From Candidatus Levybacteria bacterium RIFCSPHIGHO2_02_FULL_40_18 (GTDB lineage Bacteria; Patescibacteriota; Microgenomatia; Levybacterales; GWA1-39-11), in NCBI GenBank assembly GCA_001782235.1, contig MFOC01000004.1, positions 32,945 through 96,944 on the forward strand: 64,000 nt of DNA, read 5' to 3'. The notes beneath the pieces are model-generated. The model was not told where the DNA came from and made no database searches. It was given only the letters and a program-made list of their open reading frames with translations. Each line of letters opens with the position of its first letter. The stretch's first letter is position 1. Shown piece after piece: positions 2,939 through 64,000 of the stretch. A program made the translations under genes and the position numbers.

Positions 2939-3460
2939 ATGCCTAGTCAGAGAAACATACAATTACTAGAAGAACTAAAACAAAAGGTTGATAAGGCAGC
3001 CGCTCTGTTTTTTGTTGACTATTCGGGATTAACCCACAGACAGCTTGAAGAGGTAAGACGCGAGCTAAAAGATAATGATTCAGAAATCGGAATTATTAAA
3101 AATACTCTTATGAACCTTGCATTACAAGAAAAGAAAATAGATGCAAAAGACCGTCTTCAGGGTCCATTCGCGACCCTATTTTCCTACGAAGATCCTATTA
3201 AAACCGTTAGGGTTTTGGCGGCTTTTATAAAGAAGTATGGCCTTCCAAAAATCAAATTCGGCTGGTTTGAAAATTCGATAATAGACGAAACCATGATAAC
3301 AAAGCTTGCTACATTGCCATCTCGAGAAATTCTTGTCGCAAAACTCTTGGGGACTTTAAATGCGCCAATCTCAGGTCTCGTTTATACACTAAGTGGAAAT
3401 ATCCAGAAGCTGGCAATGGTGCTAAAGGCAGTCGAAAGTAAGAAGCAGCCAGCTTCGTAA
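2939..3460 (+). CDS. rplJ: 50S ribosomal protein L10
   Basis: Typical L10 N-terminus (NIQLLEELKQKV ... ALFFVDYSGLT). It lies immediately upstream of rplL. Confidence 0.9.
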   Translation: MPSQRNIQLLEELKQKVDKAAALFFVDYSGLTHRQLEEVRRELKDNDSEIGIIKNTLMNLALQEKKIDAKDRLQGPFATLFSYEDPIKTVRVLAAFIKKYGLPKIKFGWFENSIIDETMITKLATLPSREILVAKLLGTLNAPISGLVYTLSGNIQKLAMVLKAVESKKQPAS

Positions 3461-3462
3461 CC

Positions 3463-3590
3463 TAGAAAATAGTTCTTGGAAAATGGAAAATAGTAATGGA
3501 AAGTGGAAACTAGAAAATAGATAAATTAAAACTAATTTCCAATCTCTAATTTCCATACCATTTTCTAATTTCTAATAACCAATTTCTATT
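3463..3590 (+). repeat. MITE-like AT-rich hairpin repeat, copy A (rplJ-rplL spacer)
   Basis: The left arm ctagaaaatagttcttggaaaatggaaaatagtaatggaaagtgg pairs with the right arm ...ctaatttccataccattttctaatttctaataaccaatttctatt. It is homologous to copies at 20628, 34531, 35818 and 40661. Confidence 0.6.
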
Positions 3591-3610
3591 GAACGGGGGT
3601 GAATTAATTT

Positions 3611-4009
3611 ATGGCAAAAGCAACAAAAGATGATTTGTTAAAACAAATTGAAGAAATGTCAGTTCTGGAGGTATCCGAATTAGTCAAGGCGCTTGAGGAG
3701 AAATTCGGCGTGACTGCAGCCGCCCCCGTAGGGGCGAGCCCTGCACAGACTGGTGCTGGGGTAGCACCTGAGGCTGGAGAGCCGGCAGAAGAACAAACCG
3801 TATTTAATGTTTGGATTCAGGCAGCAGGAGATAACAAGCTTTCAGTCATTAAGACTCTCAGGGAATTAGTTCCAACTTTGGGCCTTAAAGAAGCAAAAGA
3901 TTTAGTTGACACCGCTCCAAAAGAGGTAATGACCGCCGTCAACAAGAAAACCGCTGATGAAGCCAAGGAAAAGTTAACAGCAGCAGGCGCAACAGTCGAA
4001 CTCAAATAG
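3611..4009 (+). CDS. rplL: 50S ribosomal protein L7/L12
   Basis: Conserved N-terminal dimerisation helix, an Ala/Pro/Glu-rich hinge and a C-terminal domain ([12 protein letters not shown] ... ATVELK). Confidence 0.92.
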
Positions 4010-4103
4010 TTTCCAGTTTCGAGTCTCCAATTTCCAATTAGTCAACGAGTTGATCAATTGGCAACTGGAAATTGAGCTGTAATCTCGCTATAATACCTAA
4101 ACT

Positions 4104-4394: not shown

Positions 4395-5160
4395 CGTTTT
4401 TCCCCTCAACCTGAATTTGGTCGTTTGGCAGCAATTTCGCTATCCGTTTGATGCCGTTTAGTTTTGCCTTGAACCAGACCGCGGGCCATGGATAATATGC
4501 CCGGATCATGCGGTCTAGCTGTTGGCTTTTGGCTGTTGGCTTTTGGCTAATGTCGATAAAACCAGATTCGCGAGTTAGCCTTTTGGTAAACGTCGCTTTC
4601 GAATGATCCTGCTCAATAGGTTTTAATTCTCCCGAAATATACCTCGGCAGAACTTCCGAAAGTAAATCGGCGCCTTTTTCAAACAGCCTTCGATACAAAG
4701 TTTCCGAAGTATCATTGGGTTCGATTTTTTCTTCGACCTTTGCCAACATCGGTCCATGGTCAACTTCTTCATCTAACTTTATGATCGAAACGCCGGTTTT
4801 TGATTCGCCAGCCAAAATTGCGGACTGAACAGGCGTCGGGCCTCGGTATTTAGGGAGAAAAGAAGGGTGGATATTAAGAATTCCAAATTCAAATAAGTTT
4901 AAAATTTCTTTCGGAACAATAAGCCCAAAGAACGCAAGAACCCCAATTTTTGCCCCAATTTTCTTTAGGTCGGTGATAATTCTCCGATCAAATTTGTTGA
5001 TCGAAAAACAGGGAGTGTTGCTCTTATTACAGTATAAAATTAAAGGGGAATTTGGGTCTTTTTCAGTGGTAAAAACTATTAAATCAAATCTGTAACGTAA
5101 AACCTCGACAATCCGTGAAAAGTACGGTCCTGCCCCAAAAAAAACAATTTTTTCTTTCAT
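4282..5160 (-). CDS. fmt: Methionyl-tRNA formyltransferase
   Basis: Formyltransferase N-domain (KIVFFGAGPYF ... NIHPSFLPKYRGPTPVQSAILAGESKTGVSIIKL) plus a C-terminal domain. Confidence 0.85.
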   Translation of the reverse strand: MKEKIVFFGAGPYFSRIVEVLRYRFDLIVFTTEKDPNSPLILYCNKSNTPCFSINKFDRRIITDLKKIGAKIGVLAFFGLIVPKEILNLFEFGILNIHPSFLPKYRGPTPVQSAILAGESKTGVSIIKLDEEVDHGPMLAKVEEKIEPNDTSETLYRRLFEKGADLLSEVLPRYISGELKPIEQDHSKATFTKRLTRESGFIDISQKPTAKSQQLDRMIRAYYPWPAVWFKAKLNGIKRIAKLLPNDQIQVEGKNVMKLSDFVNGYPEGREILSKLSPASTRRRSSTRSELS

Positions 5161-7030: not shown

Positions 7031-7141
7031 TAATTTTCATGCAAATTTCATGCGAATCTAAATACTGTTAATGTATGCGAATAATTATTAGTATAAATTC
7101 GTACTAATTAAATTCGAATGTATTCGTATAAGAAGTAATAC

Positions 7142-12115: not shown

Positions 12116-12470
12116 ATAGAGACTGATTTGGAAGATCGCGGTACATTTGAGGATGACAGCTAATGACACGTTCATAATTACAATTTCCTTCAAATTTTAG
12201 GGACAAATTTTTTGCCCCGTAGCAATCTCCCGAAATCACTCATTTAAAGTTCGCTCTTTAAAAATTATTGTTCAGAAAACAAGACAATCGCAAAGATTGG
12301 ATTTCTTTGGAGTTTTGTTTTTGTTGGACAAACCATAAAGTTGTTCAGATAGTGGTAGGATCTTTTTCGAACATTTTTGTTCGAGAATTTTCTTTGACAG
12401 AGTACATTTTTTTGCCAGGTACCATTCGGTACCTGACTGCAAAAATTTTGACTCCGTCAAAATTTTTTTG

Positions 12471-14066
<1,596 letters not shown>

Positions 14067-14248
14067 AGTTTTTAAGATGTAAGTAATCTATCTTACATCT
14101 TACATCTTAGTTACTTATTTACTAGTTTTTCCTGGCTCCTGGGACCTTTTAGTACAAAAGGAATGGAGTATCCCGATTTAATCGGGAAAACCTATTCCTA
14201 CCACTATCTGAGCAACCTTCTGGCGAAGCCAGATCCCGCTCCGCGGGA

Positions 14249-18852: not shown

Positions 18853-19434
18853 TTGACAATTATGGTTTTGTCTGACCGGGATATCAAAGCAGCATTAAAA
18901 GAAAAAAGAATTGTAGTTGCTCCCGCCCCCGATTTAAAAACACAACTTGGTACCTGTTCGCTAGATCTGCGACTTGGTAACATTTTCCGAGTTTTCGATC
19001 ATAGTAGATACCCTTATATAGATCCTGCGAGACGCGATTATAGTAATGAAATTACAAAAAAAGTTGTTATTAAAAACGGAGAAGATTTTATTATGCAGCC
19101 GGGCGATTTTGTTCTGGCTATGACACTTGAGAGAGTCAGGCTCCCAAATAACATGATGGGAAGACTCGAAGGAAGGTCGTCGCTTGGGAGGATTGGAATA
19201 GTGGTACATTCAACTGCCTCAATTTTTGATGCGGGATGGGATGGACACTGCGTACTTGAACTTGGGAATCTTGGGAAAATGGCTGTAAAACTTACTCCTG
19301 GAATGAGAATATGCGCCATGAGCTTTGAGGAGCTTAAGAGCGAGGTAGAAACGCCTTATGTAAAAAAGAAAAATTCAAAATATAAAATTCAAAAAGAGCC
19401 TACGGAATCAAAATTTCACGAAGATAAAAAATGA
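18853..19434 (+). CDS. dcd: dCTP deaminase
   Basis: dUTPase-superfamily fold with a Dcd-like N-terminus (LSDRDIKAALKEKRIVVAP) and GWDGHCVLELGN. Its stop overlaps the tmk start (ATGA). Confidence 0.8.
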   Translation: MTIMVLSDRDIKAALKEKRIVVAPAPDLKTQLGTCSLDLRLGNIFRVFDHSRYPYIDPARRDYSNEITKKVVIKNGEDFIMQPGDFVLAMTLERVRLPNNMMGRLEGRSSLGRIGIVVHSTASIFDAGWDGHCVLELGNLGKMAVKLTPGMRICAMSFEELKSEVETPYVKKKNSKYKIQKEPTESKFHEDKK

Positions 19435-20090
19435 AGCATAAAGTTTCTTTCGAGTTAGAATTAAAAAAGCATGATTATCCTGGGAAATTCATTGTGCTTG
19501 AGGGAATTGATGCGGCCGGCAAGACAACCCATTCATTTGAGCTTGTTGATAAATTGAAAAGAGAAGGGCATAAAACAGTTTATACAAAAGAACCGACAGA
19601 CGGAGAAATAGGAAGGTTAATAAGACAGGTTTTGGTCGAAAATATTAAGGTTCCGCCGGTTGCCCTTCAATATCTTTTTTGTGCGGATCGCGCAGTGCAT
19701 CAGGAAAAGATTATTTCATATCTTAAAAAAGGACACACTGTCATTTCAGACAGATATTTCTGGTCGGCTGTCGCTTATGGAATTGCTGATCTCTCAGGAG
19801 TTATGGATTATTATCTGACAGTATATTCTGTTCTTTCTTTTTACAACCAGTTTATAAGTCCTGATTTTACATTTTTTCTAGATGTCGAGGTAGATGAAGC
19901 AGTTAGAAGAATCAAGAAGAGCCACGAACACAGGGAAATTTATGATGATCGCGACAAAATTATCAAAATAAAAGATTCTTATGAAAAGCTGATCAACATG
20001 TTTCCCGAAGAATTTATAGTCATCAATGCCAACAAACCTATTGACGCTGTTTCAAAGGAATTATTGGAGCAAATGAGAAGGAAGATATGA
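19431..20090 (+). CDS. tmk: Thymidylate kinase
   Basis: P-loop FIVLEGIDAAGKTT, the DRY motif (SDRYFWS) and a lid region. Confidence 0.85.
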   Translation: MKHKVSFELELKKHDYPGKFIVLEGIDAAGKTTHSFELVDKLKREGHKTVYTKEPTDGEIGRLIRQVLVENIKVPPVALQYLFCADRAVHQEKIISYLKKGHTVISDRYFWSAVAYGIADLSGVMDYYLTVYSVLSFYNQFISPDFTFFLDVEVDEAVRRIKKSHEHREIYDDRDKIIKIKDSYEKLINMFPEEFIVINANKPIDAVSKELLEQMRRKI

Positions 20091-20626
20091 TTCTTGGACC
20101 GCGAAAATTGCTAGAGCTGGTTCGTAAAAAAAAGTTGGTCGAGGGATTGTCAGAGCGCGAGCTAACGAATCCTGAAGGAGCGGGTTTTGATTTGAGGTTG
20201 GGGGAGGTTTATAAAATAAGCGGTTCGGCTTTTCTTGGTGAAACACACCGAAAGACCCCGAGCATAAAACTTGTTCAAAAATACAAAGAAGGCCAGAAGA
20301 GAACAATAAAAATAAAACCCGGAGATTTTTATCTTGCAACTACAATTGAATCGGTTAATACTCCAAAAAATTTGACAATAAATTTTAAACCTCGAACCAC
20401 AACTTTTCGTTCCGGTCTATTTCTTAGAACCGGAAATGTCGCTCCGGGATATCGCGGAAAATTGACATTCGCGATTAAAAATGAGGGACCAATAACCGTT
20501 GAGATTGAAATGGGCGCCCGTATTGTTCATGCGCAGTTTGAGGAGGTAAAAGGCGGCGGCTCGTCCTACCGCGGTCAATGGCAAGGCGGCCGCGTAACAA
20601 CAACCAATCGTGAAAAACAAATATAA
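20087..20626 (+). CDS. dCTP deaminase/dUTPase-family protein (second paralog)
   Basis: GAGFDLRLGEVYK ... IKPGDFYLATTIE is the dUTPase/Dcd beta-jelly-roll signature. It overlaps tmk by 4 nt. Confidence 0.65.
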   Translation: MILGPRKLLELVRKKKLVEGLSERELTNPEGAGFDLRLGEVYKISGSAFLGETHRKTPSIKLVQKYKEGQKRTIKIKPGDFYLATTIESVNTPKNLTINFKPRTTTFRSGLFLRTGNVAPGYRGKLTFAIKNEGPITVEIEMGARIVHAQFEEVKGGGSSYRGQWQGGRVTTTNREKQI

Positions 20627-20627
20627 A

Positions 20628-20763
20628 CTAGAAAATAGTTATTGGAAAATGGAAATTAGTAATGGAAAATAGAGAATAGAAAATAGTTAATAATTAATAT
20701 ATTGCCAATTTATAATATCTAATTTCCATAACCATTATCCAATTACTAATAACCAATTTCTAT
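20628..20763 (+). repeat. MITE-like AT-rich hairpin repeat, copy B (ends at the thyA start codon)
   Basis: ctagaaaatagttattggaaaatggaaattagtaatggaaaatag ... taatttccataaccattatccaattactaataaccaatttctATG. Confidence 0.6.
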
Positions 20764-21718
20764 GAAAAAACATCAAGAATACCAATACCTAGATTTGCTT
20801 CGTGACATTATGAAAAATGGTGTTAAGAAGCCTGTTTTTAATAATCCGGGAGTAACTATTATAAGTGTGTTCGGGCGTCAGATGCGATTCGATTTGTCAA
20901 CCGACTTTCCACTTCTGACAACTAAGAAATTGTTTACGCGAGGAATTATTGAGGAACTTCTGTGGTTTATAAAAGGTGATTCTAACATTAAATATTTAGT
21001 TGACCGCAATGTTCATATTTGGGATGAGTGGGCATATAAACCGTATAAAAATCAAAAACTTAAAACTAAAAACTCAAAACTACTTTCGCAGGAAGAATTC
21101 ATAGAAAAAATAAAAACTCTACCAGCAAGTAATCCTTTTGTTAAAAAATGGGGAGATCTTGGGAATGTTTATGGAGTGCAGTGGAGGAGATGGAAAACTT
21201 CGGACGGAAGAACAATAGATCAGCTCTTATGGGCAATTGACAAACTTAAAAAAACACCAACTCGAAAACACATTATTGTTTCCGCATGGAATCCGGAGTT
21301 TATATATGAAATGGCCTCACCCGGCAAATCAATGGCCTTACCTCCTTGCCACACACTGTTTCAGTTGGATGTTCGTAATAAAAAACTATCCCTCCATTTA
21401 TACATGAGAAGCGCTGATTTTTTCCTAGGTGTCCCTTTTAATATCGCAAGCTATTCACTTCTGACCATGATGCTTGCTCAAGTAACGGGATTAAAAGTGG
21501 GTGAGTTTATTTTGACTTTTGGCGATGTTCATCTTTACAGCAACCACTTCAAACAAGTTCGTGAACAATTAAAAAGGAAGCCAAGACCTTTTCCAAGGAT
21601 GAAAATTAATCTCAAAATTAAAGATATTGATGATTTCAAAATCGAAGATTTCAAACTAGTCGGTTACAATCCCCATGATCCAATAAAGGCTCCCGTAACA
21701 GTAGTCGGAGGATTTTAG
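20762..21718 (+). CDS. thyA: Thymidylate synthase ThyA (with internal insertion)
   Basis: Active-site region MALPPCHTLFQLDV, plus DLLRDIMKNG and SAWNPE motifs. A ~50-aa insertion is comparable to the L. casei-type ThyA. Confidence 0.9.
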   Translation: MKKHQEYQYLDLLRDIMKNGVKKPVFNNPGVTIISVFGRQMRFDLSTDFPLLTTKKLFTRGIIEELLWFIKGDSNIKYLVDRNVHIWDEWAYKPYKNQKLKTKNSKLLSQEEFIEKIKTLPASNPFVKKWGDLGNVYGVQWRRWKTSDGRTIDQLLWAIDKLKKTPTRKHIIVSAWNPEFIYEMASPGKSMALPPCHTLFQLDVRNKKLSLHLYMRSADFFLGVPFNIASYSLLTMMLAQVTGLKVGEFILTFGDVHLYSNHFKQVREQLKRKPRPFPRMKINLKIKDIDDFKIEDFKLVGYNPHDPIKAPVTVVGGF

Positions 21719-21719
21719 C

Positions 21720-22235
21720 ATGAGAATTTCAATGATTGCGGCAATTGGGAAAAATCGCGAACTTGGTAAAAACAATAAATTAATTTGGAAGATCCCTTCG
21801 GATATTGCAAGATTTCGAGATATAACGCGGGGGCACCCTGTTATCATGGGAAGAAAAACATATGAATCAATTGGCAGGTTATTGCCGGATAGAACCAATA
21901 TAATAGTAAGTCGAGATTCGAATTATAAAGTAGAGGGGGCAGTGGTTGTAAATTCTGTCGAACAAGCCCTTCGATGGGTTCGACAGGCTCACCACAAGCA
22001 AGCTCAGGGTAAACAAGTCGAGGGGAATGAAGAAGTTTTTATAATTGGAGGCGCACAAATCTATGCCCTTGGGATGCCGTATGCTGATAAATTGTACTTG
22101 ACAAAAATAGACGCGAAGGAGCCCGCTGCTGATGCATTTTTTCCTGATTATTCAGATTTTAAAAAAATTGTTGGATCTAAAAAAAAAGAAGAAAACGGTA
22201 TCAAATTCGAATACCTCGATCTTGAAAAATCGTAG
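21720..22235 (+). CDS. folA: Dihydrofolate reductase
   Basis: ISMIAAIGKNRELGKNNKLIWKIPSDIARFRDITRGHPVIMGRKTYESIG is the classic DHFR N-terminus. Confidence 0.85.
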   Translation: MRISMIAAIGKNRELGKNNKLIWKIPSDIARFRDITRGHPVIMGRKTYESIGRLLPDRTNIIVSRDSNYKVEGAVVVNSVEQALRWVRQAHHKQAQGKQVEGNEEVFIIGGAQIYALGMPYADKLYLTKIDAKEPAADAFFPDYSDFKKIVGSKKKEENGIKFEYLDLEKS

Positions 22236-30780: not shown

Positions 30781-30971
30781 TATAAAAAATCAAATATTAA
30801 AAATAAAAAATACATATTAAAAATATAATATAGTTATGGTTAAAGGGTTGGGGTTTAGGTATTTAACCAAAGACCACAACTATACCCATACTGGCAGCCC
30901 TAACTCAAACCAAACCTAAACCTATTTGATATTTTATATGTATATTTGCTATTTACTATTTAATATTTAAT

Positions 30972-34485: not shown

Positions 34486-34530
34486 TACATCGAATTATAC
34501 CATCCCCTTCGGTTAAAATTCTAAGCACGA

Positions 34531-34672
34531 AATCCTAAATTCTAAACAATATTAACTAATAGACAATGGTTGTTAGAAAATAGAAAATGGTAATGGAAAA
34601 TAGAGAATGGAAAATGGAATAGTATTGTTTCCAATTACCAATTTCTATTACTGGTATTTGTTTAGGATTTCG
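34531..34672 (+). repeat. MITE-like AT-rich hairpin repeat, copy C (with terminal inverted repeats AAATCCTAAA...TTTAGGATTT)
   Basis: aatcctaaattctaaacaatattaactaatagacaatggttgttagaaaatagaaaatggtaatggaaaatagagaatggaaaatggaatagtattgtttccaattaccaatttctattactggtatttgtttaggattt. Its exact reverse complement is at 40661..40802. Confidence 0.65.
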
Positions 34673-35809: not shown

Positions 35810-35817
35810 TAGAAAAT

Positions 35818-35940
35818 AGTTATTGGAAAATGGAAATTAGTAATGGAATGTGGAAAATAGAAAATGGATATTAAAATACTAATTTCTAATATCTAATTTC
35901 CGAACCATTTTCTAATTTCGAATAACTAATTTCTTATTTC
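35818..35940 (+). repeat. MITE-like AT-rich hairpin repeat, copy D (immediately upstream of the cupredoxin RBS)
   Basis: ttagaaaatagttattggaaaatggaaattagtaatggaatgtggaaaatagaaaatgg ... ctaatttccgaaccattttctaatttcgaataactaatttc. Confidence 0.6.
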
Positions 35941-35956
35941 AAGGGGGTGAGAAATA

Positions 35957-36397
35957 TTGAATAGAAATTTAATAATAATTGCGGTTGTTGTGATAGCTAT
36001 AATAGCGGGTGCGGTTTTGTTTTTAGGAGGACAGAGCTTAGGTCCTTCAGTATCTCCAACACCAACTGGGACTGTTCAAGAACAGCTGTCTCCAACCGAC
36101 GCAGTGATGAAAGAAGAAGGGCAGGCTACGGATGAAGCAATGATGGAAAAGGAAGTGTCTATCGATATCGCCAATTTTGCTTTTTTACCTAAAACCATGA
36201 CACTTAAAAAAGGGGCAACTGTTACCTGGATCAATCAGGATACGGTCGCACATACTGCAACAGCTGACGATGCAAGTTTTGACACGGGACTTTTAGCAAA
36301 GGGAGAATCCGGATCAGTAACCTTTGACAAGCCCGGAACTTACTCTTATCATTGCACGCCGCATCCAAACATGAAGGCAACAATAGTAGTTGAGTAG
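35957..36397 (+). CDS. Membrane-anchored cupredoxin (plastocyanin/pseudoazurin-like blue copper protein)
   Basis: Type-1 Cu ligands in the canonical spacing: H (VAHTAT) ... C-x2-H-x4-M (YHCTPHPNMKATIVV). It has an N-terminal TM helix. Confidence 0.8.
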   Translation: MNRNLIIIAVVVIAIIAGAVLFLGGQSLGPSVSPTPTGTVQEQLSPTDAVMKEEGQATDEAMMEKEVSIDIANFAFLPKTMTLKKGATVTWINQDTVAHTATADDASFDTGLLAKGESGSVTFDKPGTYSYHCTPHPNMKATIVVE

Positions 36398-40660: not shown

Positions 40661-40802
40661 AAATCCTAAACAAATACCAGTAATAGAAATTGGTAATTGG
40701 AAACAATACTATTCCATTTTCCATTCTCTATTTTCCATTACCATTTTCTATTTTCTAACAACCATTGTCTATTAGTTAATATTGTTTAGAATTTAGGATT
40801 TC
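40661..40802 (-). repeat. MITE-like AT-rich hairpin repeat, copy E (exact inverted copy of copy C)
   Basis: The reverse complement of 40661..40802 matches 34531..34672 base for base in my comparison. Confidence 0.65.
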
Positions 40803-42026
40803 GTGCTTCGAATTTGGGAGTGGGTGTATAATGGATTTATTATGAAAAAGGGGGTTGCCACATTTACGCTGGATCACGGAAGGTGCCCGCCATGGCTGTT
40901 TAATCGAATGGTGAATTTAGGGCGGGAGATGACTCGGGTTTTGATCGAGGAATATGGTCCTGATGAATTTGTTGAACGAATCTCAGATCCGGTTTGGTTT
41001 CAATCATTAGGTACCGTTCTCGCCTTTGATTGGAACGCATCCGGACTTACAACAATCTTGACCGCCGCGTTAAAAGAGGCGATTCGTGGGCAAGAAAGGC
41101 AATTCGGAATCTTTATTTGTGGAGGAAAGGGCGGAACTTCAAGAAAAACTCCGGATCAAATTCAATTTTGGGGAGAAAGAATCAGTCTACCGGAGAAATC
41201 AACTGAACAGTTAATTACAAACTCCAAAATGTCAGCAAAAGTTGATTCGGCCCTCGTTCAAGATGGATACACACTTTATCACCACGCGTTTTTCTTTTCA
41301 AAAAATGGCGCATGGGCGGTAGTACAGCAGGGAATGAATACTAATGCGAAGTCTGCAAGGAGATATCATTGGTTCGACAGGTTAACAACTGACAATGGAC
41401 AACTGACAACTGACAATGAAACAATCGATTTCGTAAATGAGCCGCATAAAGCGATTTCTGCACAGACTCGGCATGCAAATGTTCTAAATTTAGTCGCCGG
41501 CAAGAGTTCTAAAACTCGCGAAACTTCGGTTGATCTAATTCGCGAAGGTTATAAAAGGGTGAAAAGCGATCTTGAGCTGCTTCGTAAACATTCAAATGAA
41601 ATGTCAAAAGTGGTCGCTTTTAGTCAGGATGGGGAGGAGTATATTGCCATGGAGCTTTCTCGAAATGATTTCTTTCATCATCCGGTTGAATTAGAAAATT
41701 TTGCTAACTCTAAATATCTGGATCGAATTTTGCAGAAACTTTCGGATAGAAAGCCCGAGGACTACAAATCGCTAGTTTCATTCCAGGGGGTAGGTCCAAA
41801 GACGGTTCGTGCGCTCTCTTTAGTCTCGGAAATAATTTACGGTGCAATGCCTTCCTATATAGATCCGGCACGATATTCATTTGCCCACGGCGGAAAAGAC
41901 GCAATACCGTATCCTGTGGATCGAGAAACCTATGACAAAACAATCGAAATTATGCGAAAAGCAGTAAATCGTTCGCGCATCCCATTCACTGACAAGCAAA
42001 AAGCCCTACGCCGCCTCGCGGCGTAA
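40803..42026 (+). CDS. Hypothetical protein, DUF763-like
   Basis: 407 aa. The N-terminal GVATFTLDHGRCPPWLFNRMVNLGREMTRVLIEEYGPDEF resembles DUF763 family members as I recall them. The start may be the internal MKKG. It contains a small in-frame tandem repeat (LTTDNGQLTTDNE). Confidence 0.35.
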   Translation: MLRIWEWVYNGFIMKKGVATFTLDHGRCPPWLFNRMVNLGREMTRVLIEEYGPDEFVERISDPVWFQSLGTVLAFDWNASGLTTILTAALKEAIRGQERQFGIFICGGKGGTSRKTPDQIQFWGERISLPEKSTEQLITNSKMSAKVDSALVQDGYTLYHHAFFFSKNGAWAVVQQGMNTNAKSARRYHWFDRLTTDNGQLTTDNETIDFVNEPHKAISAQTRHANVLNLVAGKSSKTRETSVDLIREGYKRVKSDLELLRKHSNEMSKVVAFSQDGEEYIAMELSRNDFFHHPVELENFANSKYLDRILQKLSDRKPEDYKSLVSFQGVGPKTVRALSLVSEIIYGAMPSYIDPARYSFAHGGKDAIPYPVDRETYDKTIEIMRKAVNRSRIPFTDKQKALRRLAA

Positions 42027-42068
42027 TACTACAAATGCCACAAATACTACCAATACTACAAATATTTC
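42024..42068. repeat. Left arm of the inverted repeat flanking the four-helix-bundle gene
   Basis: aatactacaaatgccacaaatactaccaatactacaaat. Its reverse complement (gtagtattggtagtatt) recurs at 42431..42478. Confidence 0.5.
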
Positions 42069-42069
42069 A

Positions 42070-42423
42070 ATGAAAACCTACGACATTCATGAAAGGATTT
42101 ATAAATTTACTGTTCGAGTAATAGTTCTAGTTAATAAACTTCCTAAAACTCCATCAAATCTTGTAATTATTACCCAAATCTTAAGGTCTGTTACATCTAT
42201 GGGAGCAAATGATCAAGAAGCAGATGGGACTTTAACAAAGAAAGACTTTATCAATAAATTTGGAATCGTCAGAAAAGAGAATAAAGAAACTAACTTTTGG
42301 TTAAGATTAATTGCTGATACTAATTCGAAGGAAATTGAAAAAGAAGCTATAGAAATCTTAGCTGAAGGAAAAGAGCTGGTTGCCATAATAAGTTCTATAT
42401 TAAACAAAACTCGAAAGAAATGA
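42070..42423 (+). CDS. Four-helix-bundle protein of the '23S rRNA intervening-sequence protein' family
   Basis: ERIYKFTVRVIVLVNKLPKT ... ITQILRSVTSMGANDQEA ... KKDFINKFGIVRKENKETNFWLRLI matches the family pattern (ExxYxF ... LPK ... QxxRS ... SIGANIAEA ... ETxYWL). Confidence 0.7.
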   Translation: MKTYDIHERIYKFTVRVIVLVNKLPKTPSNLVIITQILRSVTSMGANDQEADGTLTKKDFINKFGIVRKENKETNFWLRLIADTNSKEIEKEAIEILAEGKELVAIISSILNKTRKK

Positions 42424-42430
42424 TTGAACT

Positions 42431-42478
42431 ATTGGTGCGCATTGGTAGTATTGGTACTGTATTGGTAGTATTAATTGG
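42431..42478. repeat. Right arm of the inverted repeat flanking the four-helix-bundle gene
   Basis: attggtgcgcattggtagtattggtactgtattggtagtattaattgg. Confidence 0.5.
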
Positions 42479-57647: not shown

Positions 57648-57789
57648 GCTTGACAAGCAATTTAAAATGTGCCTAAACTAGTACATATCTAAAGTTCTAT
57701 ATATTCTCGAATTGCTCGAATCTGTTCCGAATAATTCGAATTAATTCGATGGGCATTCGAGGAATTAGGGAAGGAGGTGACTTTATTAA

Positions 57790-62380: not shown

Positions 62381-63008
62381 GAGCGTTAATTATACCATTA
62401 AATTAACAGCTCTTCATCTTATAGTAATGTCGATCGCTTTCTTGTTGTTGGGGTTTGTGGCTGCTTCTTTACTCCTGAATTCTAATTCCAATAATTTCGC
62501 AAGCTCGGCTCTTTCGGCCAGAGCAGAGAACGAATCATATTGGCTTTTACTTCACAGAAAATCTAATATTGAGTATTTATATAAAGGAGTTCCCGGTGAC
62601 GAATCGCAAAGCGAACTAATTAAGACCTTTAATGTTAAAACGGGAATTCCCGGAGAAAGACCAACTCCGCTGCCACATCTATTAGGACGAGAATATTTCA
62701 TTTTAATCGGTAAAATGAAAACTCCTGACAATCCTGAAACCGCCCCATATTTTTTGACCCTTGATGTTCCTGTCACGGATCAACCTCCATACGGGCCCGC
62801 GGATTATCCTGAATGTCCTGACGGCTGCAATTGGGAGCTTCCGGGATATTTTGGTTTGCACGGAGTGGGCGGGGACAATTCGAAATTATCAAAGGAAGAC
62901 CCGGGGAGCTCTGGGTGTATCAGACATTCAGATGAAGACATTACGTATTTATATAATAATCTTGATCCGAGTCTTGAAGAGATAAGGTACTATATCATTG
63001 ACAATTAA
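62379..63008 (+). CDS. L,D-transpeptidase (YkuD) domain protein
   Basis: HGVGGDNSKLSKEDPGSSGCIRH is the His/Cys catalytic motif. The ORF track gives 62286. The likely start is MSVNYT. Confidence 0.7.
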   Translation: MSVNYTIKLTALHLIVMSIAFLLLGFVAASLLLNSNSNNFASSALSARAENESYWLLLHRKSNIEYLYKGVPGDESQSELIKTFNVKTGIPGERPTPLPHLLGREYFILIGKMKTPDNPETAPYFLTLDVPVTDQPPYGPADYPECPDGCNWELPGYFGLHGVGGDNSKLSKEDPGSSGCIRHSDEDITYLYNNLDPSLEEIRYYIIDN

Positions 63009-63028
63009 CAAATTGACTAATTAACAAA

Positions 63029-64000
63029 ATGACAAGGATGAGAAATATATTTATTGGGCTAGTTAGTGTTTTGGTTTTGGTAGGGATTTTTATTTTTATT
63101 AAGGGGAAATCGAATAGTTCTAGTTTAATTATCGGTTTGATTCCTAATTCTATGACTACTGCCTCACCAACACCCTTTCCATTCCAGGAAATGACAATTC
63201 CATATTTAAGATCAAGAAGTTACGAAAGTAAACTTGGAGAGCTTCGCCAAGTTTCACAAAATTCCGATTACGCCTCTTATTTAACAAATTATAGTTCTGA
63301 CGGACTTCGCATTAACGGATTACTCACTATCCCAACCGGCACACGGCCCTCCGGCGGTTGGCCTGCCGTGGTGTTTATCCACGGCTATATTCCCCCTCAA
63401 AACTATCAAATTCTCGTAAATTATTCCTCTTACGTAGATTATTTGGCAAGAAACGGTTTTGTGGTTTTTAAAATTGATCTTCGCGGCCACGGCGATTCTG
63501 AAGGAGAGGCGGGAGGAGGGTATTACTCGGGCGATTACATTATCGATACCTTGAGCGCGCGTGCGGCGCTTCAAAATTCCGACTTTGTAAATCCTGACAG
63601 GATTGGTCTTTGGGGACATTCAATGGCGGGAAACGTTGTCGCACGCGCGCTTGCGGCTACCCCAAATATTCCTGCGATCGTTATATGGGCGGGAGCGGTT
63701 TACACATATGCAGACTTTTCCCAATATTCGATTGATGATAATTCTTACCAGCCGCCGTCGGAAGATTCTCCTCAAAGAAGAAAAAGGAACGAGCTGTTCG
63801 AAAAGTACGGAAGATTCGACTCAAATAGTGAATTTTGGCAACAGGTTCCCATGACTAATTATTTAGACGATATAAAAGGCGCAATTCAAATTAATCATGC
63901 TACTGATGATCCTGTTGTAAGTATAGACTACAGCCGGAATTTTAATTCGATACTTGATAAAACTCCGATTGTTCACGAGTTAAACGAATACTCGTCTGGC
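63029..64000 (+). CDS. Alpha/beta hydrolase, paralog of 59184..60284 (C-terminus beyond the window)
   Basis: Manually translated. No stop occurs before the window end. GWPAVVFIHGYIPPQNYQ and GLWGHSMAG parallel the paralog. Confidence 0.65.
   Translation, partial: MTRMRNIFIGLVSVLVLVGIFIFIKGKSNSSSLIIGLIPNSMTTASPTPFPFQEMTIPYLRSRSYESKLGELRQVSQNSDYASYLTNYSSDGLRINGLLTIPTGTRPSGGWPAVVFIHGYIPPQNYQILVNYSSYVDYLARNGFVVFKIDLRGHGDSEGEAGGGYYSGDYIIDTLSARAALQNSDFVNPDRIGLWGHSMAGNVVARALAATPNIPAIVIWAGAVYTYADFSQYSIDDNSYQPPSEDSPQRRKRNELFEKYGRFDSNSEFWQQVPMTNYLDDIKGAIQINHATDDPVVSIDYSRNFNSILDKTPIVHELNEYSSG

Follow-up and report, generated by a model that had tools for sequence, protein, structure and literature searches.

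Heptamer-armed hairpins at operon junctions of a Levybacteria genome, probable relatives of the intervening sequences of rRNA genes

Intervening sequences (IVSs) of rRNA genes are known from Coxiella, Leptospira, Azospirillum and other bacteria. They occur in two forms, with an open reading frame (ORF) and ORF-less, as among the enterobacterial IVSs. The IVS of Coxiella is a 428-nt selfish element, composed of a terminal-repeat stem, a variable number of tandem GACAGAT heptamers and an ORF for an S23p protein, and it is excised by RNase III (PMC4990558). Insertions in rRNA genes of Candidate Phyla Radiation (CPR) bacteria also contain ORFs of this kind, coding for intervening sequence proteins (IVPs, also called S23p; PMC11270868). 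Here we describe a repeat, built of two arms of heptamer units, in a stretch of 64,000 nt (the window; GC content 0.41) from contig MFOC01000004.1 of Candidatus Levybacteria bacterium RIFCSPHIGHO2_02_FULL_40_18, whose L10 protein is 100% identical to the one encoded in the window. The closest known system appears, by sequence comparison, to be the rRNA IVS with S23p ORF, of which ORF-less hairpins in operon junctions would present a new form. We propose that the repeat is probably the ORF-less form of an IVS-type selfish cassette, an insert that is tolerated and co-transcribed at the stop-start junctions of operons.

Several other groups of repeats share some of these traits. Correia (NEMIS), ERIC, RUP and BOX elements, which are miniature transposable elements with inverted repeats (MITEs), are imperfect palindromes of 100-150 nt in transcribed intergenic DNA, can form hairpins in operon mRNA and can create hybrid promoters, and in this they resemble the repeat described here. 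Contrary to it, each of them is restricted to one genus or family, has terminal repeats of transposase type and defined target duplications and lacks 7-nt periodicity, whereas the present element spans many CPR phyla and carries PF05635 in its long form; a search of Rfam gave no sequence or structure match that would place it in a Correia- or ERIC-like family. Repetitive extragenic palindromes (REP/REPIN) with RAYT are likewise short and abundant palindromes at gene ends, but they are 20-40 nt long, have a GTAG or CGTC head and depend on RAYT, in place of ~55-nt heptamer arms and PF05635. Heptamers of Nostoc (STRR, GGGGAYT) and Xanthomonas (GGGAATC, often in convergent inverted pairs), some of them located in operon junctions such as pecE-pecF, are tandem, intergenic and frequently paired in inverted orientation, as the present arms are (PMC4692102). 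These arrays are near-perfect and variable in length and are discussed as G-quadruplex or slippage products with no link to PF05635 (PMC4692102), unlike the CPR arms, which are of fixed length, degenerate and interrupted by conserved irregular units.

The element and its gene-carrying relatives

The element is an imperfect palindrome of ~125 nt. Each arm (~55 nt) consists of ~8 heptamer units with consensus T-R-G-A-A-A-W, and the 7-nt periodicity runs along the whole arm. All copies keep two units that depart from this pattern, GTTRTT close to the outer end of the arm and GTAAT at its middle. A 25-nt degenerate core of the left arm has five matches in the window, against 0.00 expected from 100 shuffles:

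3463-3590, plus strand: copy A, an ORF-less heptamer-armed hairpin that fills the rplJ-rplL spacer
20629-20762, plus strand: copy B, between the stop of a dcd-like gene and thyA
34558-34649, plus strand: copy C, right arm partly deleted, inside the composite 34516-34670
35810-35937, plus strand: copy D, in the divergent spacer between a glucose/sorbosone dehydrogenase (GSDH) gene and a cupredoxin gene
40682-40773, minus strand: copy E, partly deleted, inside the composite 40661-40815

The loops of copies A-E are 10-25 nt long and contain no ORF. Rfam, searched at the gathering threshold with the whole window and in E-value mode with positions 3400-3700, has no family for the element and returned chance matches to microRNA hairpins far below threshold.

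The scan of genomes, with one genome per species and the 25-nt core as query, gave 29 loci from Uhrbacteria, Saccharibacteria, Levybacteria, Curtissbacteria, Buchananbacteria, Liptonbacteria and other Patescibacteria bins. All 29 have the same architecture and the same conserved flanks beyond the searched core. In one of them, from Uhrbacteria (L021), the arms lie ~400 nt apart and enclose an ORF of 135 amino acids (aa); another (L010) has a homologous ORF followed by the right arm. Both ORFs belong to PF05635, "23S rRNA intervening sequence protein", a family of four-helix-bundle proteins. The full cassette would be ~500-540 nt long and composed of a 5' arm (~8 heptamers), the PF05635 gene and a complementary 3' arm, and copies A-E would have kept the arms and a short loop.

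The scan of metagenomes with the L021 protein gave 80 loci at 43-69% identity, and in 54 of them a hidden Markov model (HMM) of the arm has matches directly adjoining the IVP gene. In the typical case, one arm reaches up to the start of the IVP gene and the other begins just past its stop. All 54 loci are found among the 64 IVPs that are at least 52% identical to L021, with none among the 16 more distant ones. Several IVPs without TRGAAAW-arm matches (L099, L103-L117) have heptamer-periodic inverted arms of other types instead, namely ATTCGAA, GGGTTGT, GGGTTAG and AGATGTT/GAAATTG. The split at 52% identity, together with these other arms, means that the arm family tracks the protein subfamily, and from this co-variation specific binding by S23p/IVP proteins is predicted.

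The window has a gene-carrying cassette as well, of another arm family, wedged between a DUF763 gene and a small ORF, with arms tactacaaatgccacaaatactaccaatactacaaata / ...attggtagtattggtactgtattggtagta:

42027-42475, plus strand: gene-carrying cassette with heptamer-periodic inverted arms of TACTACA/TACCAAT type
42070-42423, plus strand: its IVP gene (PF05635, Pfam E = 6e-14)

Among 20 IVP loci searched with Rfam, none lies within an rRNA gene. A tblastn match on an Azospirillum plasmid falls within a gene for 23S rRNA (LSU by Rfam, 2549 bits) and is a classical IVS, with GAGGACG/GATGACA heptamers as arms around the IVP gene. In Pseudanabaena, a gene for a "four helix bundle protein" is situated between cas6 and cas4 and flanked by (AAAAGCT)x15.6 and (AAAAGCC)x14. 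An IVP gene between cmr3 and cmr2 has been noted in Pleurocapsa (PMC3936711).

By comparison of their sequences, the arms of copies A-E are homologous to the arms of gene-carrying cassettes, and because of this homology the copies are read as the ORF-less form of an IVS-type cassette. As their loops have no ORF, they are filed as ORF-less derivatives and not as full members of the IVS group. Traits common to rRNA IVSs and the element are the long stem formed by terminal inverted repeats, the heptamer arms (GACAGAT in Coxiella, PMC4990558; those of Azospirillum given above), the PF05635 gene that the full form has in its loop, the position inside a host transcript in co-orientation with the host, and the existence of forms with and without ORF. 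The differences are that the element occupies junctions of protein-coding operons and not helix 25 or 45 of 23S rRNA, that window copies A-E are without ORF, and that the stem is longer (~55 nt per arm) and less perfect. The literature, as incompletely covered here, holds no account of these CPR hairpins and none that links heptamer repeats to PF05635, and novelty is claimed tentatively for both.

The preliminary description of this DNA called the repeat a MITE. The label holds loosely, for a short palindrome in many copies that is present or absent at orthologous sites. It does not hold in its strict meaning, a deletion derivative of a transposase-encoding insertion sequence (e.g. IS630/mariner-like, with TA duplication) moved in trans, as the gene-carrying partner encodes a PF05635 protein and no recognizable transposase. 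Copies nested inside other repeats would fit such an origin, and so would the TA found at both ends of copies A, B and D; the thyA junction can be read as insertion at the TA of T-ATG. On the other side, the only longer elements with these termini carry PF05635, the 6 kb that separate copies C and E contain no transposase, and a 7-nt periodicity of the whole arm is unlike the terminal repeats that transposases bind; neither does the occurrence across many CPR phyla with a conserved consensus suit a MITE. The sole empty thyA site, in L122 from another lineage, reads TAAtATG where TA duplication predicts TAAacTATG, a difference of 2 nt. An origin as conventional MITE is thus improbable. Viral contigs scanned by pattern gave no match and no sign of a phage vector.

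Copy C is nested in a second heptamer hairpin, of TTCGAAT/TTAGGAT type, the two forming the composite 34516-34670 (plus strand). The composite 40661-40815 (minus strand) is its inverted duplicate at a distance of 5990 nt. The two 155-nt composites are 99% identical, compared to only 65-93% likeness among the other copies, and this suggests that they were duplicated recently, were subject to gene conversion or bound a segment that can invert. The 6-kb segment from C to E was also considered as a composite transposon; it carries genes for GSDH, cupredoxin, ATP-grasp, 7TM, bactofilin-like and ArsR proteins but no transposase, and the idea was rejected. In the relative L011, gene order at the C end is as in the window. 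TIGR-Tas arrays are direct arrays of ~36-nt units, and on this layout they were rejected as well, the element being a single heptamer-periodic palindrome.

Stop-start junctions and the Shine-Dalgarno sequences

Distances from the element ends to neighbouring ORFs were taken from the genome loci for ORF-less copies and from the metagenome loci for gene-carrying copies. Flanking genes are co-directional in 15 of 19 cases in each set. When gene-carrying copies are oriented by the IVP gene, this gene reads in the direction of both neighbours in 14/19. For ORF-less copies the spacer that is left after removal of the element has a median of 22 nt. Sixteen of the 38 elements are placed in junctions of at most 25 nt (element removed); such gaps account for 2.1% of intergenic bases in the same loci and for 38% of gaps by number. 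Comparison of these shares indicates that elements are distributed per junction and not per non-coding base, and their placement in short junctions is not chance. The arms themselves carry a weak polarity signal (21 of 24 assigned correctly in leave-one-out), by which 10 of the 12 callable ORF-less copies are co-oriented with the flanking genes. Both forms therefore occupy the stop-start junctions of co-directional genes, and the gene-carrying form is co-oriented with its neighbours.

The preliminary description had noticed that copies sit directly at the translation starts of rplL, thyA and the cupredoxin gene. This adjacency is a property of the whole family and not a quirk of three genes, because the downstream ATG overlaps the terminal ...TTTCTA in L017, L051, L054, L060, L072, L073, L076, L078, L079 and L083 as well as in copy B. 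At such starts no Shine-Dalgarno (SD) sequence is possible.

Gene features around copies A and B are as follows:

2741-2882: L10 leader
2939-3460: rplJ, stop codon at 3458-3460
3595-3602, plus strand: SD of rplL, GGGGGTGA, ancestral and outside the element
3611-4009: rplL
18853-22235: cluster of dcd, tmk-like, dcd-like, thyA and folA genes

Copy A begins 2 nt past the stop codon of rplJ, and 20 nt separate its end from the rplL ATG (3611-3613), the junction being ...cgTAAcc[element]ttgaacGGGGGTGAattaatttATGgca; its description as filling the spacer, with GGGGGTGA as ribosome-binding site, was exact to the base. Copy B begins 2 nt past the stop of the dcd-like gene (20624-20626), and its last base, 20762, is indeed the A of the thyA ATG (20762-20764). 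The thyA gene has no SD, and an in-frame TAA at 20750, 12 nt upstream, excludes an earlier start. Copy D is followed, as reported, by GGGGGTGAG (35943-35951) and the cupredoxin start, which is a TTG at 35957; on its other side it adjoins the divergent GSDH gene (minus strand, ATG 35791).

From this arrangement it had been suggested that the element may deliver an SD sequence. Comparison of the rplJ-rplL junctions of relatives, retrieved via L10 homologues, contradicts it. Relatives without the element already have GGGGGTGActaatTAAtATG or GGAGGTGActaatTAAcATG there: the junction is ...gcgaGGGGGTGActaatTAAtATGgca in L035 (L10 78% identical) and ...gacGGAGGTGActaatTAAcATGgca in L037 (76%), and in both the SD lies within the end of rplJ and the stop is separated from the ATG by 1 nt. 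The SD-spacer-ATG of rplL is common to L034, L035 and L037, and the old rplJ frame GGG GTG AAT TAA is still recognizable downstream of copy A. Copy A therefore entered the former last codons of rplJ, upstream of a pre-existing SD. Furthermore, GG[AG]GGTGA also precedes four element-free genes of the window (42794, 51135, 57372 and 57773); it is complementary to the 3' end of 16S rRNA and is the generic SD of this genome. On this sequence evidence, the SD of rplL predates the insertion and the element brings no ribosome-binding site.

Both junctions differ among relatives. In L034, the closest relative found (L10 81% identical), the rplJ-rplL spacer holds a different hairpin of ~75 nt with ATTCGGA/TCCGAAT units, ending ~10 nt upstream of the point where copy A ends. 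At dcd-thyA, L121 (Levybacteria GW2011_GWB1_39_7) has the window's element at the identical place, while in L119 and L120 a hairpin of another family (TTCAAAA units) takes up precisely the space from TAA to ATG, and in L122 (Dcd 85% identical) the junction is empty: gttTAAtATGgca, TAAtATG. Therefore each of the two junctions has been invaded independently by at least two hairpin families; these alignments show the insertions as secondary and recurrent events in ancestral junctions of TAAtATG type with a spacer of 1 nt. L015 has kept the copy that lies upstream of the GSDH gene. Among the near-identical strains L001-L004 there is no variation in or near the element, neither in its presence nor in the number of heptamers.

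Several hairpins have themselves received insertions. Unrelated GC-rich palindromes are nested in the arm or loop of TRGAAAW hairpins in L007 (3780-3860), L013 (450-500) and L028 (7520-7610), and hairpins are evidently targets for further hairpins.

Hairpin, promoter and binding array

The preliminary description proposed that the hairpin is part of the 5' untranslated region (UTR) and could control RNA stability or translation. Its first half stands: copies A and B lie in tight co-directional clusters and the gene-carrying form is co-oriented, so the hairpin is very probably contained in a polycistronic transcript. The second half, a cis-regulatory RNA, located in the 5' UTR or between cistrons, that acts on rplL, thyA and the cupredoxin gene and is selected for mRNA stability or initiation, has little probability. 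Speaking for it are the position immediately upstream of starts, the retained copies in L121 (thyA) and L015 (GSDH) and the stability of the fold: full copies A, B and D give -27 to -35 kcal/mol as RNA with z = -4.0 to -6.2, copy A having -31.6 kcal/mol and z = -5.0 against dinucleotide shuffles. Yet the antisense strands fold equally well or better (better in copy A, -40.1 vs -31.6 kcal/mol, and in copy B, -32.9 vs -27.2). RNAalifold on 16 ORF-less copies gave a covariation term of +0.28, that is, no covariation, and at the R positions of these copies the mix of AU, GC, GU and AC pairs is that expected of two independent sides. Within an ORF-less copy, the arms resemble each other no more than they resemble those of unrelated copies (0.714 vs 0.718); for gene-carrying copies the values are 0.735 and 0.715, with 41 of 2000 permutations reaching the observed value. 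Counted in the orientation of the IVP gene, G.U and A.C mismatches are about equal in number (99 vs 115), with no strand asymmetry and no excess of G.U on the sense strand. The element is absent at both junctions in close relatives (L035, L037, L122) or replaced by unrelated hairpins (L034, L119, L120), it stands beside dozens of unrelated genes in many phyla, and, as said above, Rfam has no family for it. With no compensatory evolution, strand asymmetry or conservation in close relatives, a selected 5' UTR regulator of rplL and thyA is unlikely.

As a further alternative, the element could donate outward promoters, similarly to Correia elements in Neisseria, with terminal TTTCCA as -35 and a nearby -10, giving short or leaderless downstream transcripts. 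A simple sigma-70 scan, with counts compared to shuffle expectation, found such sites. Copy D has, on its minus strand, an internal TTTCCA that is followed after 17 nt by TATAAT in the flank (35829->35801, 10/12), and this -10 ends ~10 nt before the GSDH ATG. Copy B has TTAATA-18-TATAAT in its interior. A short related hairpin next to rplL offers another site:

4010-4075, plus strand: hairpin TTTCCAG.../...CTGGAAA, directly 3' of the rplL stop

Its 3' TGGAAA is followed after 17 nt by TATAAT (4089-4094), a 10/12 promoter-like site ~10 nt before the rpmB ATG. Many downstream ATGs also lack an SD, as promoter donation would allow. Nevertheless, the scan gave no site in copy A and no count above shuffle around it, and the copy D region has 5 sites against 4.2 +/- 2.3. 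Around copy B the count is above expectation (7 vs 2.2 +/- 1.4), though the minus strand has the majority of them. In addition, the alignment of 16 copies has no conserved -10 at a fixed distance from the element end, and copies A and B are inside operons that need no new promoter. Donation of promoters as the function of the element is hardly to be expected, though an outward-promoter effect is possible at some copies, judging from these motifs. Two observations may be added: rplL has heptamer hairpins on both of its sides, and the rpmB, GSDH and DUF763 genes have TATAAT 9-12 nt before their ATG. The latter suggests short or leaderless mRNAs for these three genes.

The third alternative takes the arms as an array of heptamer sites for a protein, most plausibly an oligomer of the cognate IVP, on DNA or RNA, with pairing of the arms secondary. 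Five of the seven positions per unit are near-invariant across phyla, while R and W vary freely and independently in each arm; conservation of each arm separately resembles a series of sites for a protein more than it does a tuned helix. Arms of different families go with different IVP subfamilies, and ORF-less copies could be bound in trans. Against this, the literature examined gives no binding data for PF05635 proteins, whose function is unknown according to PMC4990558, and the IVP gene present in the window has arms of another family. A binding array alone would also leave the placement in junctions unexplained; it is compatible with the proposed cassette and not exclusive of it. As an explanation in its own right we consider it doubtful.

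The proposed ORF-less cassette would act as follows. By analogy with rRNA IVSs, it would have no promoter of its own and would be transcribed as part of the host operon. The long stem would fold back and either be excised by RNase III, as in rRNA IVSs, or merely keep the upstream stop and the downstream start adjacent; by either route, a cassette inserted at a translationally coupled junction would do almost no harm. Excision by RNase III has been shown for rRNA IVSs (PMC4990558) and is carried over to the element by analogy only. Presumably only insertions that spare initiation signals survive, and this requirement for intact start signals would leave the element upstream of the SD where the gene depends on one (rplL, cupredoxin), and directly at the ATG where the ancestral junction was a bare TAAtATG (thyA). 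Candidates for initiation at thyA would be an A/U-rich leader left by processing, opening of the base of the stem by the ribosome that terminates there, and an internal promoter. Adjacency to starts is most likely a footprint of where cassettes land and are tolerated, not of delivered or selected regulation.

Several points weigh against this proposal. The stem is only ~72-74% complementary, with a mismatch at about every seventh position, and the 28-bp near-perfect stem of Coxiella is a better substrate for RNase III. A signature motif of RNase III was not found in the 64-kb window, which is uninformative for a piece of that size. To our knowledge PF05635 proteins are not transposases or recombinases, which bears on how the cassette moves. 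The promoter-like sites of copies B and D, given above, would allow transcription to start inside or beside the element. Copies C and E seem, by eye and unscored, to be anti-oriented to their flanking genes. Finally, gene contexts in the relatives of the window and in metagenome loci rely on crude ORF calls, and external copies were ascertained via a near-consensus pattern or IVP homology.

A wider reading, which is possible but tentative, would unite heptamer inverted repeats and the PF05635 gene in one pan-bacterial class of selfish cassettes that live inside host transcripts, their hosts being rRNA helices in Proteobacteria and operon stop-start junctions in CPR bacteria and cyanobacteria. 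Held with the same reserve as parts of this joint reading are three further statements. The arms would serve as the array that the cognate PF05635 oligomer recognizes, as each protein subfamily goes with its own arm family. The heptamer repeats and hairpins of CPR genomes would descend from ORF-less derivatives, and so possibly would cyanobacterial STRRs and the GGGAATC pairs of Xanthomonas. The hairpins would be "mRNA intervening sequences" cut by RNase III, and genes without their former coupled TAAtATG, thyA being an example, would be translated from a processed, SD-less, A/U-rich 5' end.

The proposed cassette would tie together rRNA IVSs, the abundant four-helix-bundle proteins of PF05635 and the heptamer repeats and hairpins found in great number in some genomes, with an element of the IVS kind colonizing protein-coding operons at single-nucleotide stop-start junctions. 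The role of S23p/IVP proteins and the movement of IVSs would become testable questions. In the thyA operon, essential for nucleotide metabolism, a coupled TAAtATG is replaced by a 135-nt hairpin without SD, and RNA processing or hairpin-bridged re-initiation would have to operate in these minimal bacteria. The hairpins also inflate intergenic regions and may break assemblies or mislead gene callers in CPR bins.

Further hairpins and heptamer runs

The rRNA region of the window has two more palindromes:

12464-14045: 16S rRNA gene

The gene is ~50 nt longer than the Rfam model and has an AT-rich palindrome with ~7-8-nt periodicity at 12550-12640, near the 5' end, with arms TTAACCAATTAACAAATTTACCAATTAAC / GTTAATTTGTCAATTTGTT. 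Possibly a 16S helix has here received an IVS-like insertion without ORF. Directly past the 3' end of the gene, at 14055-14120, is the hairpin TTAAGTT TTAAGTT TTTAAGA TGTAAGT ... CTTACAT CTTACAT CTTAGTT.

Other heptamer hairpins and runs are present in longer intergenic regions at 30840-30930, 57700-57760, 7040-7130 and 62995-63040; their types, as listed, are GGGTTGG/GGTTTAG (like arms of distant IVPs), TTCGAAT, ATTCGTA and TTGACAA/TTAACAA. Such elements make up much of the "excess" intergenic DNA of the window. Heptamer runs are also found in coding sequences. In dprA, positions 2081-2127 are a run of AAGTCAA/AATTCAA/AAGGCAA units. In fmt (minus strand), positions 4515-4547 are AGCCAAA AGCCAAC AGCCAAA AGCCAAC and encode SQKPTAKSQQ; the unit is that of the (AAAAGCC)n beside the cyanobacterial four-helix-bundle gene. 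This run was considered as an in-frame insertion, and the idea was rejected, as alignment with the Fmt of a relative shows no change in length.

In about ten L10 homologues (P0040, P0048, P0057, P0062, P0063, P0068, P0069, P0088, P0089 and P0109) the called protein exceeds the usual ~173 aa by 55-85 aa; translation that continues into an inserted hairpin, or a start wrongly called within the L10 leader, may account for this. Six loci titled "uncultured Gammaproteobacteria" (L015, L007, L010, L012, L016 and L023; 32-39% GC) carry the CPR hairpin, and their labels look wrong; L015 also has a gene whose product begins like the GSDH of the window (MTKIIVGLG).

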